Counted from the stretch's first letter, positions 10,666 to 45,626 are shown. The stretch: DNA of 64,000 bases from an uncultured Acidobacteriota bacterium (GCA_964574335.1 CAZNNH010000003.1:9038-73037), one strand, 5' to 3'. Notes: generated from the sequence alone by a model not told the origin. Program-made: numbers and translations.

Positions 10666-11046
10666 CTAGCTCTTGCGCTTGACCAGGCGGAAGACCCGGT
10701 CGGTCGACGAGGGCGCACCTCCGAGGAGTCGCACCTCGACCTCCAGTTGCGGACCCCGATCCTCCAGCCGGACCTCGAGCTCCGGGGCGTCCTCGGGGTT
10801 TGCGGGATCCTCGACCAGACGTGACGCCGCCTCCGCCACGTCTCGCCCGACGCCTCCGCTGGTTTCGTCGTCGAAGCCGGCGAGCTGGGCGGTGCGGGTG
10901 GCGAGGTCCTGGGCCAGGGCGACGACCGGCGGCCCGGTCGGAAGGCGCATGACGAAGCTGGGCGGCCGCGGCCGGCGACGGGAAGCGCCGGCCGCGCCGG
11001 GACGCGTCTTGTCGTTCACCACGCCGCGACTATACCCTTTTCTCAC
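10666..11046 (-). CDS. Small hypothetical acidic protein
   Basis: 126-aa ORF, or 94 aa from the internal Met, between cysS and ribF on the same strand. The C-terminal half has normal composition (ELEVRLEDRGPQLEVEVRLLGG). No recognised domain. It could be spurious. Confidence 0.25.
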   Translation of the reverse strand: MRKGYSRGVVNDKTRPGAAGASRRRPRPPSFVMRLPTGPPVVALAQDLATRTAQLAGFDDETSGGVGRDVAEAASRLVEDPANPEDAPELEVRLEDRGPQLEVEVRLLGGAPSSTDRVFRLVKRKS

Positions 11047-18270: not shown

Positions 18271-19635
18271 CTAGCGGGGGACCAATTGCACGACCGTCTC
18301 CAGGTGATAGGTGTCCGGGAACAGGTCGAATCCCCGGATGCTGGCGGGCCGGTAGCCGAGCGCCGCGAAGCGGCGCAGGTCCCGAGCCAGCGTGGTGGGG
18401 TCGCACGAGACATACACCACGCTCTCGGGGTGGCGAGCGGCGATGGCGGCCACCACCGCCTCGCCGGCCCCCGTGCGGGGGGGGTCCAGGACGACACGCT
18501 CCGGCCTGGGCGACCTCGCCGGCCGCAGCATCTCCTCCACCCGACGACGCTCGACGCGAACGTTCCTGAGCCCGGCGGCGCGAGCGTTGAAGCTGGCGTC
18601 GGCGGCTGCGGTGGCGTTCTGCTCGACGGCCAGCACCCGCTCGGCCCGACCCGCAAGCGCCAGGGCGAACAGGCCCACCCCGGCGTACAGGTCGAGGACC
18701 ACGCCAGCTTCAGGGGTCCGGTCGACGACCTCGCGCACCAGCGGCTCCAGCAGGTAGCGGTTCCCCTGGAAGAACGAGCCCACGTGGGCGCGCAGCTCCA
18801 GGCCGGCTACCTTGGCGGTCACGAAGGGCTCGCCCCTGAGGTGGAGGTAGAGGCGGCGACCGGCCCGACCCGGCAGCACGCCGAAGCCGGTGAGGTGGGG
18901 CGCGGCGGCGGCCAGGCGAAAGAGACTCGCGGCCTGGGCCGAGGGCAAGCTGGTGTCCAGGGCCGCCACCAGGCGGTCTCCCGCATCCGACTCGGCCAGC
19001 TCGATGCCGTGGATCTGCTGCCACGCCGCCGGGCTCGCCTCTATCCCCAAGCGGAACGAAGCCAGCGCCCGGTTCATGGCCGGCGACACCTGTAGGCACT
19101 CGTCGAGGTCCACGACCTCACGGGAGCCCGCCCGATACAGGCCGAGGCGCGCGGTGCCGCCGCGCTCGGCCAGGTGGAAGCGGGCCCGGGTCCGCCAGCC
19201 CTGCTCGGGAGAGGCCACCACCTCGATCTCCTCATCCCAGTTGAGGCCGCCCCGGCGCAGCGTCTCGCCGAGCACCTCCCCCTTGATCCGGCGCTGGGTC
19301 TCGTAGCCGAGCTCCTGGTAGCTGCAGCCTCCACAGCGGTCGTGGAACCGGCAGGGCGCCGGCCGGCGCTCGCGGCTCGCTTCGAGGACCGTCTCGATGG
19401 TGGCGCGGGCGTAGTCTCGGGACACCGACGAGACGCGGACCCGCAGCCGGTCGCCGGGGAAGGCGCCGGGGACGAAGACCACCTGACCCTGGTGGCGTCC
19501 CAGCCCCTGACCCTGGTACACGGCCTTCTCGATCGAGAGATCGATCACGTCACCGGTCCGCAACCCCTGGCGCGGTCCCGACGAGGAGGAGGCCCCGGTT
19601 CCCGCCCCGGGAGGGGCGCCGCGGCCGGGGCTCAA
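18271..19635 (-). CDS. rlmD: 23S rRNA (uracil-C5)-methyltransferase RlmD/RumA (TRAM domain, 4Fe-4S Cys cluster and SAM methyltransferase)
   Basis: TRAM domain (GDVIDLSIEKAVYQGQGLGR), Fe-S cysteines (CRFHDRCGGCSYQ) and methyltransferase motifs (VLDLYAGVGLF, the DPPRTG catalytic motif). The start is called at the TTG at 19635-19633 because an AGGAGG Shine-Dalgarno sits 7 nt upstream. The 591-aa ORF to 20046 is an Arg/Gly-rich artefact. Confidence 0.8.
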   Translation of the reverse strand: MSPGRGAPPGAGTGASSSSGPRQGLRTGDVIDLSIEKAVYQGQGLGRHQGQVVFVPGAFPGDRLRVRVSSVSRDYARATIETVLEASRERRPAPCRFHDRCGGCSYQELGYETQRRIKGEVLGETLRRGGLNWDEEIEVVASPEQGWRTRARFHLAERGGTARLGLYRAGSREVVDLDECLQVSPAMNRALASFRLGIEASPAAWQQIHGIELAESDAGDRLVAALDTSLPSAQAASLFRLAAAAPHLTGFGVLPGRAGRRLYLHLRGEPFVTAKVAGLELRAHVGSFFQGNRYLLEPLVREVVDRTPEAGVVLDLYAGVGLFALALAGRAERVLAVEQNATAAADASFNARAAGLRNVRVERRRVEEMLRPARSPRPERVVLDPPRTGAGEAVVAAIAARHPESVVYVSCDPTTLARDLRRFAALGYRPASIRGFDLFPDTYHLETVVQLVPR

Positions 19636-20300
19636 GGCGCGACCTCCTGATGATGAAACAGACTCAGCCGTGGAATGCCGAAGCCCCCCAGCAGGCGGCG
19701 GCGCAGCGACTCGCGACGCACCTGCGCGTAGACGGTGGCCGGCATCCGGGAGCGGTACGGCGCCAAGTCGGCGTCGACGGCCACCCCCAGCTCGGCCACG
19801 CCGGAAGGGCCAGCCCGCCTCTCCAGGGCCCGCACCAGCCGGTCCTCCGCTCGGCCGAGCTCGGCCTCGACCCCGCTGGTCTGGGCGGGCTCTCGCGCAA
19901 GCTCGCGAAGGACTTCTGTGATCTCGCGGCAGACGCGGGGAGCCCCCCTCTCGTCGGCAGCGCGCTGAAGCGCCGCGGCGAGCCGCTCCAGGATCGCAGT
20001 CGTGTCCACGCCGGCCGCGGCCCCGAGGGAGAGGGCCCGCTGCCACCTCTCGCGCGCCTCCTCCACCTCCGCCTCACAGTAGGCGAGGCTCATGACCTTC
20101 TGGTGCCGGGACCAGGAGTGACGATGGGCGTCGAGGGCATCCGCGATCCCCCGCAGCACGATGCGAAGCGGCAACTGCGCCTTCCGCCATTTCCTCACCA
20201 GCAGCCAGTCGGCGTTCGAGAGGAACAGCGGGTCGCCGCGGCGGGAGACGAAGAACTCCTCGATCGACTGGTAGTACTCGGCCTCGGGGTCTTGGGGCAT
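19632..20300 (-). CDS. Conserved hypothetical protein
   Basis: 222 aa with balanced composition (MPQDPEAEYYQSIEEFFVSRRGDPLFLSNADWLLVRKWRK...). Its stop overlaps the rlmD TTG start by 4 nt, implying translational coupling. No recognised domain. Confidence 0.5.
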   Translation of the reverse strand: MPQDPEAEYYQSIEEFFVSRRGDPLFLSNADWLLVRKWRKAQLPLRIVLRGIADALDAHRHSWSRHQKVMSLAYCEAEVEEARERWQRALSLGAAAGVDTTAILERLAAALQRAADERGAPRVCREITEVLRELAREPAQTSGVEAELGRAEDRLVRALERRAGPSGVAELGVAVDADLAPYRSRMPATVYAQVRRESLRRRLLGGFGIPRLSLFHHQEVAP

Positions 20301-20364
20301 TCCACCACACGGCGACTAGTGTTCCGTATCGCAAGTCATGCTGGCAACAACCAGGAGAAGAGAT

Positions 20365-20490
20365 CCGGGGTACACGATCCCGATTCGACGGAAGCGGTGC
20401 CATGGGGACATGACCCGAATCCGTCGGCAGCCCGGGATTCGGGATCGTGTCCCCATGGCCGGTCTCGCCGAAATCGGGTCATGTCCCCGG
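20365..20490. repeat. Array of four about 25-bp imperfect repeats in F-F-R-R orientation, including a 59-bp near-perfect palindrome
   Basis: Copies sit at 20365-20391 (ccggggtacacgatcccgattcgacgg), 20400-20427 (ccatggggacatgacccgaatccgtcgg), 20431-20458 (cccgggattcgggatcgtgtccccatgg, inverted) and 20467-20490 (gccgaaatcgggtcatgtccccgg, inverted). The span 20400-20458 is a long imperfect palindrome. Confidence 0.5.
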
Positions 20491-20595
20491 ATCTCCGGTT
20501 GGAGCTCCTACCATCAGCCCGCGATACCGAACACGTCGTGTCCAGTCGGCAGGCCCACGGAGCCGAAGTCCGTCGGCGCCTTCTGGTACAGGACA

Positions 20596-21372
20596 CTAGC
20601 GCCCGCCCCGATGACGCTCGTGGATCAGACGCAGGCCGGTCAGGGTCAGCACCGGGTCCACCACCTCGATCGATGGGATGTCGGCGGCCAGCACCTCGGC
20701 CAGGCCGCCCGTGGCCACCACCCGGGCCGGCTGGCCGAGCTCCTCGCGAATGCGGAAGATGATCCCCTCCACCATGCTGCAGTAGCCGAAGTAGAGGCCC
20801 GACTGCATCGACTGCACCGTCGAGCGCCCCACCACCCGCGCCGGCTTCCGTACGTCCACCCGCGGCAGCCGGGCGGCCCGTTGGAACAGGGCGTCGGCGC
20901 TGATCCCGATCCCCGGGCAGATCACCCCCCCGAGGTACTCGCCGCCCTCGGTCACCACGTCGAAGGTGGTGGCGGTGCCGAAGTCGACGACCACGCAGGG
21001 GCCACCGAAGGCGGCGAGCGCGGCCACCCCGTTCACGATCCGGTCCGCGCCCACGTCGGCTTGAGGCTCGTAGAGGATGGGCATCCCGGTGGGAACGCCC
21101 GCCTCCACCACCAGCGGCTCCTGGCCCAGGTCTCGCTGGCAGAGGGCCACCAGCACGGATGTCAGCGGGGGCACCACGCTTGCCAGGGCCACCCCGCCGA
21201 TCTCCCGCGGGTCGATCTCGGCCGAGGAGAAGAGGTTGCGGATCAGGATCCCGTACTCGTCGGCGGTCTGCTCGCGCCGCGTGGTCAGCCGCCAGTGGAC
21301 TTCCAGCCTCCCGTCCCGATGGACGCCGAGCACGGTGTGGCTGTTGCCGACATCGATGGTCAGGAGCATCAT
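20596..21372 (-). CDS. coaX: Type III pantothenate kinase
   Basis: 258 aa. N-terminal 'LLTIDVGNSHTVLGV', and 'GADRIVNGVAA', 'VVVDFGTATTFDVV', 'GLAEVL' match the CoaX/Baf (ASKHA fold) family. Confidence 0.9.
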   Translation of the reverse strand: MMLLTIDVGNSHTVLGVHRDGRLEVHWRLTTRREQTADEYGILIRNLFSSAEIDPREIGGVALASVVPPLTSVLVALCQRDLGQEPLVVEAGVPTGMPILYEPQADVGADRIVNGVAALAAFGGPCVVVDFGTATTFDVVTEGGEYLGGVICPGIGISADALFQRAARLPRVDVRKPARVVGRSTVQSMQSGLYFGYCSMVEGIIFRIREELGQPARVVATGGLAEVLAADIPSIEVVDPVLTLTGLRLIHERHRGGR

Positions 21373-21385
21373 GCCGCCAGGATCC

Positions 21386-22183
21386 TCACGATGACCCGCG
21401 CCGGAGCGTCCAGGCCTCGCCCGAGTGGACGCTCATCGTGGAGCCGTCCGGCTGCCGAAGCTGCAGCCCCCCGTCGGCGTCGACTCCCAGCGCGATCCCG
21501 CGACAGGCTGCCCCGCCGAAACACACCTCTACTTCCTCCCCCCACCACGGCACGGAGCGCTGCCTGAAGGCGTCGAGAATCGCGGGACCACCCTCGCGGG
21601 TGAGGGCATGATACCAGACGCGCAGACGGCCCACGATCCGGGCCGCCATCACCAGCGGGTCGGAGCCGGAGCCGCTCTCGGCGGCAACGCTGGTCGCGTC
21701 CACGCCGGCCGGCGCCACCGTGAGGTTGACACCGCACCCGAGGACCACGAAGGTCGTGCCACGCGCCTCCGTGCTCGCCTCGGCCAGCACACCGGCCAGC
21801 TTGCGGCCCCCGACCACGACGTCGTTCGGCCATTTCAGCAGCGCCGCCACACCCAGCGAGGCAAGCGCCTCGTGAACCGAGACGGCCGCGGCCAGCGGGA
21901 TCAGGGTCAGGCTGACAACGGCCGGGTCCGGCCGCAGCAGCACCGAGAGATACAGGTTGCCGGCCGGCGACACCCAGGTCCGGCCCCGGCGGCCGCGACC
22001 GGCCGTCTGGCACCCCGCCAGAACCAGGCTCCACTCCGGCGCCCCCTGGGCGGCCAGATCGCGAAGCCGATCGTTCGTCGACGGGAGCGCGCGGTGGAGC
22101 TCCATGATGGCCGGAACCGCGCCGGCATCCTGCTCCAGCAGTCGGACCAGCCTCTGAGTCTCGGGGCTCGACAAAGGGCTCAC
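21386..22183 (-). CDS. birA: Biotin-[acetyl-CoA-carboxylase] ligase (BirA catalytic and C-terminal domains, no HTH)
   Basis: 'QTAGRGRRGRTWVSPAGNLYLSVLL' (biotin-binding GRGRRGR motif) and 'LKWPNDVVVGGRKLAGVL'. It lies directly upstream of coaX, which is the common birA-coaX arrangement. Confidence 0.85.
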   Translation of the reverse strand: MSPLSSPETQRLVRLLEQDAGAVPAIMELHRALPSTNDRLRDLAAQGAPEWSLVLAGCQTAGRGRRGRTWVSPAGNLYLSVLLRPDPAVVSLTLIPLAAAVSVHEALASLGVAALLKWPNDVVVGGRKLAGVLAEASTEARGTTFVVLGCGVNLTVAPAGVDATSVAAESGSGSDPLVMAARIVGRLRVWYHALTREGGPAILDAFRQRSVPWWGEEVEVCFGGAACRGIALGVDADGGLQLRQPDGSTMSVHSGEAWTLRRGSS

Positions 22184-22232
22184 TCGCGCCCGCGGGCACG
22201 GGCGTGGCTCGGCGGGACGTCGAGATGCCGCC

Positions 22233-29103: not shown

Positions 29104-30056
29104 AGCGGGGCGCGCTGGTGGTGCTGAAGGTCGCCGTCAGCCTGGGGCTGCTCGGCTACCTGTTCGCCACCACCGATCTCGAGGCCCTGCTCCAGAGGGT
29201 GCGGACCGGAGACCTGCTGCTGCTGGCGGCGGCGGTCTTCCTCTACGCCGCCATGCTGGGCCTGTCCACCTGGCGCTGGGGGCTGCTGCTGAGCGCCCAG
29301 GGCTACCCTGCCCCGCTGCGGGACCTCTCGGCCTCCTACCTGGTGGCCACCTTCTTCAACAACTTCCTCCCGAGCAACATCGGCGGGGACGTGATCCGGA
29401 TCCGCGACGGCTCCCGCCTGACCGGCTCCACCACCGCCTCGGTGGCGATCGTGGCCATCGACCGCATCCTCGGCTTCGGCGCCCTCTACTTCCTGGCCGC
29501 CGCCGCCTTCGCGTTGGGAGGCACCGAGGTCCGTGAGCTGGCCGGGGCACGAGCCGTGGTCGTCGGTCTCGGGGGCTTCTTCGTGGTGCTGGCCTACGTC
29601 TTCTTCCAGCCCGGCACCGCCCGTCGCGTCATGGCCGCCACGCGGCTGAACCGGATCGGCTGGGCGCGCGACCGCTTCGAGACCGTGCAGGCGGCGGTCC
29701 ACGTCTACCGGAAGGAGCTGCCCACGGTCTTCCTGGCCCTCGGGGCCAGCGTGGCGCTGCAGGTCCTGATCGTCTTCTACTTCTTCGCCGTCGCCCACTC
29801 GCTGCGTATCCCGCTCCCGCTATCGGCCTGCTTCCTGATCGTGCCGCTGTGCACGCTGGTGCAGGCGATCCCGGTCTCCTTCAACGGCTGGGGGATCCGG
29901 GAGAGCCTGTTCATCGTCTACTTCGCCCAGGTCGGCCTCTCCCGAGACAGCGCCCTGGCCTTCAGCCTGGTGGGGGCCAGCCTGATCGTGCTGCTGTCGC
30001 TCTCGGGCGCCGTGGTCTGGACCACTCGCCGCCGGGACCAGCCGGCGGAGGGTTGA
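29100..30056 (+). CDS. UPF0104 / lysylphosphatidylglycerol-synthase-TM-like (flippase-like) integral membrane protein
   Basis: About 8 TM helices. Motifs 'FFNNFLPSNIGGDVIRI' and 'PVSFNGWGIRESLF' are typical of the PF03706 (LPG_synthase_TM / TIGR00374) family that is commonly linked to glycosyltransferases. Confidence 0.7.
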   Translation: MKRGALVVLKVAVSLGLLGYLFATTDLEALLQRVRTGDLLLLAAAVFLYAAMLGLSTWRWGLLLSAQGYPAPLRDLSASYLVATFFNNFLPSNIGGDVIRIRDGSRLTGSTTASVAIVAIDRILGFGALYFLAAAAFALGGTEVRELAGARAVVVGLGGFFVVLAYVFFQPGTARRVMAATRLNRIGWARDRFETVQAAVHVYRKELPTVFLALGASVALQVLIVFYFFAVAHSLRIPLPLSACFLIVPLCTLVQAIPVSFNGWGIRESLFIVYFAQVGLSRDSALAFSLVGASLIVLLSLSGAVVWTTRRRDQPAEG

Positions 30057-45575: not shown

Positions 45576-45626
45576 GGTTCCGTGCCTCGTCTCATCATCG
45601 AGTCTAGCTCAGGACGCGGACGACGA

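Follow-up and report, generated by a model that had tools for sequence, protein, structure and literature searches.

The RUP of Streptococcus pneumoniae is an IS630-family MITE that is reportedly moved by IS630-Spn1. REPs are by definition extragenic, are usually lineage-specific, and carry a 5' GTAG-like tetranucleotide. The SDR of heterocyst-forming cyanobacteria, said to go back to Elhai et al. 2008, are reportedly repeats of ~21-27 nt that insert in one another and in genes.

The IS630-family elements are known to transpose by cut-and-paste into TA, which is duplicated (PMC2170065). A preference of IS630 for TA within CTAG is credited, in a citation given in PMC2170065, to Tenzen & Ohtsubo 1991. 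The Chunjie MITE of Geobacter uraniireducens (Chen et al. 2008) is A+T-rich and has 21-bp TIRs and 9-bp direct repeats according to the summary in PMC3184786. The Rickettsia palindromic elements (RPE; Ogata et al. 2000) are given as ~100-150 bp long and confined to Rickettsia in the summaries of PMC10969869 and PMC3184786.

We analysed a 64,000-nt stretch of DNA (referred to as the window), in which the original prediction had pointed out a cluster of short repeats downstream of coaX. With a probability of about 80%, we regard this cluster as the core of a 278-bp IS630-type MITE that landed on the coaX stop codon and carries two nested mobile hairpins. The cluster lies in a gap of 295 bp, as had been claimed, between coaX and an ORF of 222 aa. 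On the same strand, the gene order downstream of coaX is the 222-aa gene, an rlmD-like methyltransferase gene, and comEC. The organisms named by the CoaX homologues are Acidobacteria and Vicinamibacteria. In the two closest relatives (L002 and L003; CoaX 94% identical, flanking DNA 89-91% identical), the coaX stop codon is followed by 15 bp and then by the ATG of a 221-aa gene, and in L004 (CoaX 82% identical) coaX and the hypothetical gene overlap with no insertion between them. When the window was aligned with L002 and L003, the flanks were the same and 278 extra bases were present in the window alone, between two CTAG. The empty site reads GGGCG-CTAG-TCGCC and the filled site reads C-TA-(278 bp)-TA-G. 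The features of the insertion and its surroundings are listed below.

20596-21372, minus strand: coaX (type III pantothenate kinase; Pfam PF03309, E = 1.8e-70), upstream of the insertion
19632-20300, minus strand: conserved 222-aa hypothetical gene, downstream of the insertion and followed by the rlmD-like methyltransferase gene
20319-20596: inserted non-autonomous IS630-type element (MITE), 278 bp, absent from L002, L003 and L004
20317-20318: left copy of the target TA, within CTAG 20316-20319, from the empty-site alignment with L002 and L003
20597-20598: right copy of the target TA, within CTAG 20596-20599
20319-20335, plus strand: left TIR, GTGTTCCGTATCGCAAG, matching the family end motif CTAGTGTYCYGTAYCRSAAG
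20580-20596, minus strand: right TIR, GTGTCCTGTACCAGAAG on the minus strand, matching the family end motif
20521-20534, minus strand: third, internal TIR-like copy, GTGTTCGGTATCGC on the minus strand (inverted repeat I5)
20535-20595: 61-nt terminal segment, which forms a hairpin of its own in the folds and ends in the right TIR

The GC content of the element is 63%, compared with 71% for the window. The coaX stop codon is the TAG formed by 20598-20596 on the minus strand, with the element's final base now supplying its G. The insertion left this stop codon intact, since a second TA was generated and CTAG was re-formed at each junction by the G...C ends of the element. Among the options that had been proposed, a miniature REP/MITE-like element is the one borne out by these data, given the precise insertion into TA (CTAG), the absence in close relatives, and the IS630-type TIR ends. 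The repeat cluster at 20365-20490 is real, but the reported span was too short, the inserted unit being 20319-20596. It had also been held that lack of conservation in related genomes would indicate a random local duplication; the locus is indeed not conserved, but the cause is mobile DNA.

The end motif CTAGTGTYCYGTAYCRSAAG was searched for. Its two matches in the window are the two ends of the element, against 0 expected. The metagenome scan with this motif matched at least 120 contigs, with 129 ends among the matches listed, many of them at contig ends. Among the same matches listed, paired ends delimited 40 short elements that are non-coding (64-214 bp, the commonest lengths being near 166 and 193 bp), together with 11 longer spans (1146-1371 bp) that have a transposase match, the full-length IS elements being ~1146-1201 bp long (L137, L073, L090 and others). 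The TIR family as a whole is highly multi-copy, and the flanks of most paired elements read c-TA...TA-g. The left TIR of the window element is matched by an end in L068 without a difference over 25 nt, and the 20-mer of the right TIR also stands at element ends in L031, L052, L061, L084-L086, L093 and L107. Two junctions in this family were observed in passing. The 1371-bp span in L023 (236-1606) is a MITE abutting a full IS with one common CTAG, and at 2109-2295 of L098 a MITE and a solo end abut in the same way; in both, each IS630-type element end recreates the preferred target.

The 366-aa ORF of L137, which was the one transposase tested directly for domains and for NF033545, contains DDE_3 and HTH_32/29/23 domains and scored 246.5 bits with the NCBIfam model NF033545 'IS630 family transposase' (cutoff 100). 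An IS5 or IS481 origin, which had been raised by the CTAG duplication and the TGT...ACA ends, was rejected because elements with the same ends encode an IS630-family transposase; on the IS481 model, the L137 ORF reached 69 bits against a cutoff of 224. Since the TA/CTAG is duplicated and the TIRs are common to elements encoding IS630 transposases, the window element was assigned to the IS630-type MITEs.

Like other IS630/Tc1-mariner MITEs, the window element has matching TIRs with the same motif as the NF033545 elements, a TA duplicated within CTAG, a small non-coding body without an ORF (only short overlapping ORFs cross the 278 bp), and a presence/absence difference among relatives at the orthologous site. 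No transposase was found in the window by tblastn with the L137 IS630 transposase. The sampled MITEs with the same TIRs (64-214 bp) differ from the window element, which is longer (278 bp), has an unrelated interior, and contains a third TIR-like copy and two nested unrelated hairpins. With the hairpin block removed, its interior gave z <= 2.25 against 18 MITE subfamilies of the TIR family. Among the 120 family loci sampled, nothing was shared with the window element beyond 27 nt or less of TIR. Furthermore, there was no second copy of the 278-bp element in the 64-kb window, and nothing beyond chance in cultured phages and plasmids. Chunjie, as summarised in PMC3184786, is likewise a MITE inside an operon, between co-oriented genes and with a very stable RNA/DNA hairpin, but it belongs to another IS family.

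The internal TIR-like copy pairs with the left TIR (93% complementary) and closes a long hairpin, 20319-20534. Judging from the sequence, this copy and the 61-nt hairpin may represent two family members joined in tandem, or else an inner (transposase-)binding repeat; mini-elements of 64-92 bp, to be compared with the 61-nt terminal segment, occur in the TIR family (L132, L067). The left and right TIRs agree at 11 of 16 positions. Since the TIRs differ to this extent and a third, internal TIR-like copy is present, the window element may be decayed or composite and no longer able to move.

The target of the element is scarce. Base composition predicts 169 CTAG in the window and 15 are present, which is an ~11-fold under-representation. 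The first eight lie at 10666, 16692, 18271, 20316, 20596, 26218, 42769 and 44522, and the remaining seven at 45604, 48917, 49702, 51034, 52808, 55754 and 57485; two of the 15 flank the element. At least two others (18271 and 26218) fall on minus-strand ORF ends, where they are TAG stop codons, and TAG stop codons may make up a sizeable share of the remaining CTAG targets. A landing exactly at the end of coaX would fit, because TAG stops are among the scarce CTAG targets, and the CTAG scarcity would funnel IS630-type insertions to gene ends.

Other differences were seen around coaX. The gene upstream of it (21386-22183, minus strand) is birA-like, 45% identical to BirA of L004 (E = 3e-62), and an ORF at 21369-22199 that overlaps it is spurious. 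L002 (1234-1347) and L003 are without these ~770 bp and pass directly from a response-regulator gene to coaX, and the birA-like region is thus a second presence/absence difference adjoining the MITE. In L005 (1053-1285; CoaX 80% identical), an unrelated sequence of ~230 bp lies between coaX and the hypothetical gene. Its coaX stop is again in CTAG, and IS630-type ends are absent; the coaX junction in L005 is disrupted independently. We also noted that L001 (1495 bp; JGI sample 3300031277) is 100% identical to 20391-21885 of the window and ends in the middle of the nested hairpin, an assembly break of the kind that palindromic repeats cause. L143, a contig of an Acidobacteriota MAG, likewise begins within a hairpin copy.

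The repeat cluster itself was then dissected. Its four units and the two hairpin copies that they form are as follows.

20367-20386, plus strand: unit A, GGGGTACACGATCCCGATTC, a type 1 arm
20404-20421, plus strand: unit B, GGGGACATGACCCGAATC, a type 2 arm
20436-20454, minus strand: unit C', reverse complement of GGGGACACGATCCCGAATC, a type 1 arm
20471-20488, minus strand: unit D', reverse complement of GGGGACATGACCCGATTT, a type 2 arm
20360-20495, plus strand: outer hairpin copy, canonical in orientation on this strand, with arm A at 20367-20386 (type 1, GGGG(T)ACACGATCCCGATTC) and arm D' at 20471-20488
Flanking arms A and D': stem extension of the outer copy, 7 bp, GAGATCC/GGATCTC
20404-20454, minus strand: inner hairpin copy, canonical in orientation on this strand, with arms B (20404-20421) and C' (20436-20454) and a 14-nt loop

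All four related units that had been described were found, each of ~19 nt, with a start-to-start spacing of 32-37 bp, and the 59-nt near-palindrome at 20400-20458 was confirmed, with CCATGG at both ends and a DNA fold of -26.5 kcal/mol (z = -6.8). The orientation, which had been called alternating, flips once only (+ + - -), and the units form a nested hairpin made of the outer pair A/D' and the inner pair B/C'. The array was rightly said not to be CRISPR-like, in view of this + + - - order, the small number of four units, and the 'spacers', which are loop and stem parts of one hairpin. The palindrome as a whole extends from ~20319 to 20534; the paired segments in the inverted-repeat survey are 20319-20332 with 20521-20534, and 20316-20335 with 20580-20599.

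No further copies of the units were found in the 64-kb window by blastn, motif search, or the inverted-repeat survey, and weak motif matches at 29385 and 61739 are ordinary coding sequence. A single copy in the window is what a chance local duplication or palindrome without relatives elsewhere would give. However, both layers of the structure have many relatives elsewhere, and the folds and motif counts are far beyond those of shuffles: the unit pattern had 5 matches against 0.36 expected from shuffles, the folds of 20360-20495 gave z = -8.4 to -9.8, and 0 of 200 shuffles folded as well as the whole gap on either strand. The probability of a chance origin is practically negligible.

The folding check that had been proposed was run on the whole gap and gave z = -8.5 for the plus strand and z = -10.7 for the minus strand, the transcript of which has a very strong predicted fold of -177.6 kcal/mol. 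Such a fold, together with the position of the element between co-oriented genes that are coupled in relatives, would be expected of a cis-acting RNA element of the coaX-rlmD operon kept for regulation, be it an attenuator, a terminator, a processing or stabilising hairpin, or an sRNA, and an exapted effect on read-through or mRNA stability is conceivable. Nevertheless, none of the relatives compared has the element at the orthologous site, its ends are transposon TIRs with a TA duplication, and the hairpin unit lies inside ORFs in both orientations relative to transcription. The terminator or attenuator first suggested did not materialise in a scan of 20100-20800, which gave no terminator-like site (no U-tract terminator) on either strand. 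The small structured RNA fared no better, as the same scan gave no promoter-like site and the locus had no match in Rfam even at permissive E-values, apart from two sub-threshold chance matches, to a plant miRNA and a luteovirus element (21 bits against gathering cutoffs of 45-69; E = 0.1-0.3). A regulatory RNA is therefore considered decidedly unlikely, and the MITE with its hairpins is retained as the preferred reading.

The arms of the cluster indicate how the two hairpin copies came together. The loop of the outer copy contains the inner copy, which is extended by CCAT/ATGG to 20400-20458 and was scored by the covariance model R1 at 60.2 bits (E = 2e-11). Arms A and C' belong to type 1 (CACGATCCCG) and arms B and D' to type 2 (CATGA-CCCG). 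A simple inverted duplication was rejected, since it would give the order type1-type2-type2'-type1' and the arms here stand in another order. A nested insertion fits, because the A/D' and B/C' pairs each reproduce the canonical mismatch and bulge. With the R1 model, ~600 kb of IS630-type loci yielded no copy of the hairpin, and neither did the rest of the window; therefore, the hairpin does not belong to the regular make-up of the MITE family. The idea that the four units are sites of the transposon was also discarded, the units being instead the arms of two copies of a separate hairpin element.

This hairpin is an imperfect one of ~45 nt, GGGGACACGATCCCG...CGGGTCATGTCCCC. The canonical unit consists of GGGGACACGAT(C/A)CCG, an upper stem of 4-5 bp, a loop of ~8 nt, and CGGGTCATGTCCCC. 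The type 1 arm has an extra T, plus a C where the type 2 arm has a T. One strand consequently has a C·A mismatch and a bulged T, and the other a G·U(T) wobble and a bulged A. In an alignment of 12 distinct copies, 96.8% of the cells were paired and 4 upper-stem pairs had compensatory changes; the search patterns themselves account in part for the invariance of the lower stem. At positions that the patterns left open, the asymmetric form was present in every copy. Moreover, the IMG/VR scans recovered the asymmetric hairpin on 5 viral contigs and two perfect-palindrome versions on none. The 45-nt core corresponds to 15 codons, and 5 of the 6 frames are open when the consensus is translated. The literal hairpin strings had no match in the literature searched, including the supplements of the G. 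metallireducens multicopy-sequence paper.

At least 14 distinct copies of the hairpin are now known, from Geobacter, viral contigs and an Acidobacteriota MAG. The hosts are Geobacter sp. UBA6151 (L007), the IMG/VR contigs L014-L018 and L139-L142, and the end of the L143 contig. The GTDB scan, over representatives that do not include the genome of the window, with ATGGGGACAYGAN{0,1}CCCGAWTC, a pattern made needlessly narrow by its required 'AT' prefix, gave 8 matches against roughly 9 by a hand chance estimate; seven of the eight were single chance matches and L007 was the only true hairpin. The L007 copy closely resembles the outer pair of the window, including the GAGAT...ATCTC flanks. The scans of IMG/VR yielded further copies on nine contigs, and those of the cultured phage and plasmid collections nothing beyond chance. 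The copies lie mostly within long ORFs, in frame, and in both orientations relative to the host ORF, which points to a DNA-level element rather than an RNA function. The Mu-like contigs among the hosts are as follows.

L142: hairpin within a MuA-type transposase ORF
L014: hairpin within a Mor ORF; a GemA gene on the contig
L015: a GemA gene on the contig with the hairpin
L018: hairpin just past the gpT head protein gene
L016: hairpin within a lytic transglycosylase ORF
L141: hairpin within a primase ORF

These locations bear on the multi-site operator that had been among the options. Four related ~19-bp sites with a regular spacing of ~34 bp in an intergenic region could be half-sites for a dimeric or tetrameric transcription factor controlling the downstream genes. 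However, the sites arrived within an insertion, and the same units lie in the coding regions of unrelated proteins, namely HypF, a MuA-like transposase, Mor, a primase and a lytic transglycosylase. In addition, the conserved mismatch and bulge are relevant to a folded single strand and not to a duplex operator, and there is no adjacent regulator gene. An operator is thus very improbable, compared with the arms of a mobile hairpin.

To our reading of the sequences, HypF of Geobacter relatives offers the clearest evidence that the hairpin may be mobile. An insert of 15 aa, DTIPNQ(K/T)ADSGHVP, is present at both sites in P0122, at site 1 in L007 and at site 2 in P0124, and is absent from 8 orthologues (P0121, P0123, P0125-P0128, P0132 and P0151). 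At the DNA level, the empty sites are gaps of 42-45 nt. The flanks of the filled and empty HypF sites were too diverged to define the hairpin boundaries or a target duplication. A word-indexed search with the 15-aa peptide gave 6 small ORFs, and a search of 50%-identity cluster representatives gave 23 matches, several of them flank noise; neither is informative on abundance, because insert-carrying proteins are seldom cluster representatives. The hairpin family, with its conserved asymmetry, is polymorphic for presence in HypF.

Some further observations concern the surroundings of the hairpins. The right flank in HypF is native coding sequence and the left flank resembles its new complement, which hints that the flank may be copied in inverted form upon insertion. 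At 7098-7150 of L007, that is, at HypF site 2, there is a second, different palindromic in-frame insert, GGGTCCAGACGGTCAAAAGCTTTTATCGAACCCAGGACCCC, and this is where P0122 and P0124 carry the canonical hairpin. Site 2 is either a hot spot or a loop in which inserts are tolerated, and a second family of hairpins may exist. Beside complete hairpins, partial tandem reiterations of one arm and a few flanking bases were seen (L014 10469-10500, L016 9922-9968, L018 1880-1901; e.g. ...GTCATGTCCCCGCAACC CC CGAACCGGGTCATGTCCCCGCAACC), which suggests slippage or repeated events at one site.

The behaviour of the hairpin is like that of the RPE, as it is a palindromic insert, in frame in unrelated genes and variable among orthologues. 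RPE, as summarised in PMC10969869 and PMC3184786, are likewise selfish palindromes that add a peptide and leave the ORF intact. The hairpin differs from them in its length (~45 nt), in its hosts (Acidobacteriota, Geobacter relatives and Mu-like phage contigs), and in having no sequence similarity to RPE.

The hairpin also shares features with REP/REPIN and with the subterminal hairpins of IS200/IS605, all being short imperfect palindromes with an extrahelical base and strand asymmetry, which occur in inverted pairs with no TIR or obvious target duplication. The cluster could accordingly be a BIME-like mosaic of REP/REPIN-type hairpins spread by RAYT (Y1 HUH) and not a DDE-type MITE. The conserved extrahelical base would agree with this, and so would the flanks: in 7 of 17 copies they extend the stem by at least 5 bp (5-8 bp) with unrelated sequences, as at L007 6964-7024, L014 10414-10476 and L142 2045-2102, compared with 2% at random positions. 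Such traits, location at the tips of longer palindromes included, are typical of sites recognised as a single strand; either the hairpins land at palindrome tips, or the stem base is a variable part of the element. Nevertheless, the outer boundaries of the cluster are IS630-type TIRs with a TA duplication, and REP-type spreading would explain the inner layer only. Furthermore, the hairpins start with GGGG, a motif different from that of REPs, are common to distant phyla and phages, and are mostly intragenic, with copies inside HypF and the phage genes listed above, where a REP would be strictly extragenic. We regard a REP/REPIN-type origin of the whole cluster as unlikely and keep to a MITE that holds two hairpins. 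The SDR, compared by description only, are similar in being very small mobile repeats that are nested and intragenic, and differ in phylum and in sequence.

The following course of events can be proposed. The MITE would be mobilised in trans by an IS630-type DDE transposase, whose gene lies elsewhere and which would bind to the TIRs (TA followed by GTGTYCYGTAYCRSAAG...). The element would be excised and pasted into the TA within the CTAG that holds the coaX TAG stop, and the duplication of TA, with the G...C ends of the element, would restore CTAG on each side. The hairpins probably entered the centre of the MITE palindrome after the MITE itself was in place, and one copy would have inserted, in the opposite orientation, into the loop of the other. 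A strand-specific enzyme may handle the hairpin as a single strand, much as REP/RAYT or IS200/IS605 ends are handled, and the hairpin presumably tends to land at palindrome tips. A very stable 278-nt hairpin would separate coaX from the formerly coupled genes; the element is probably selfish, and any effects that it has on the coaX-rlmD-comEC operon would be incidental at most.

We further propose, tentatively and at somewhat less than even odds, that the hairpin (GGGGACACGATMCCG-upper stem/loop-CGGGTCATGTCCCC) represents an undescribed family of ultra-small mobile elements. Such a family would cross between Acidobacteriota and Desulfuromonadales, ride Mu-like phages, and insert in frame, at palindrome tips and into itself, and a putative dedicated enzyme would read the invariant mismatch and bulge in the single strand.

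At this locus, what looked like a regulatory repeat array is transposon debris, and the outcome is above all a clean explanation. The MITE itself is ordinary; the hairpin family is an interesting by-product and a modestly surprising lead. An element that targets CTAG can split a tightly coupled operon and leave both genes undamaged, and in high-GC genomes the few CTAG left would favour landings on TAG stop codons. The hairpin is tolerated in frame in essential-type genes and is common to distant bacteria and Mu-like phages. If its mobility is confirmed, it would provide a tractable case for how the smallest selfish DNAs move and are carried by phages between hosts.
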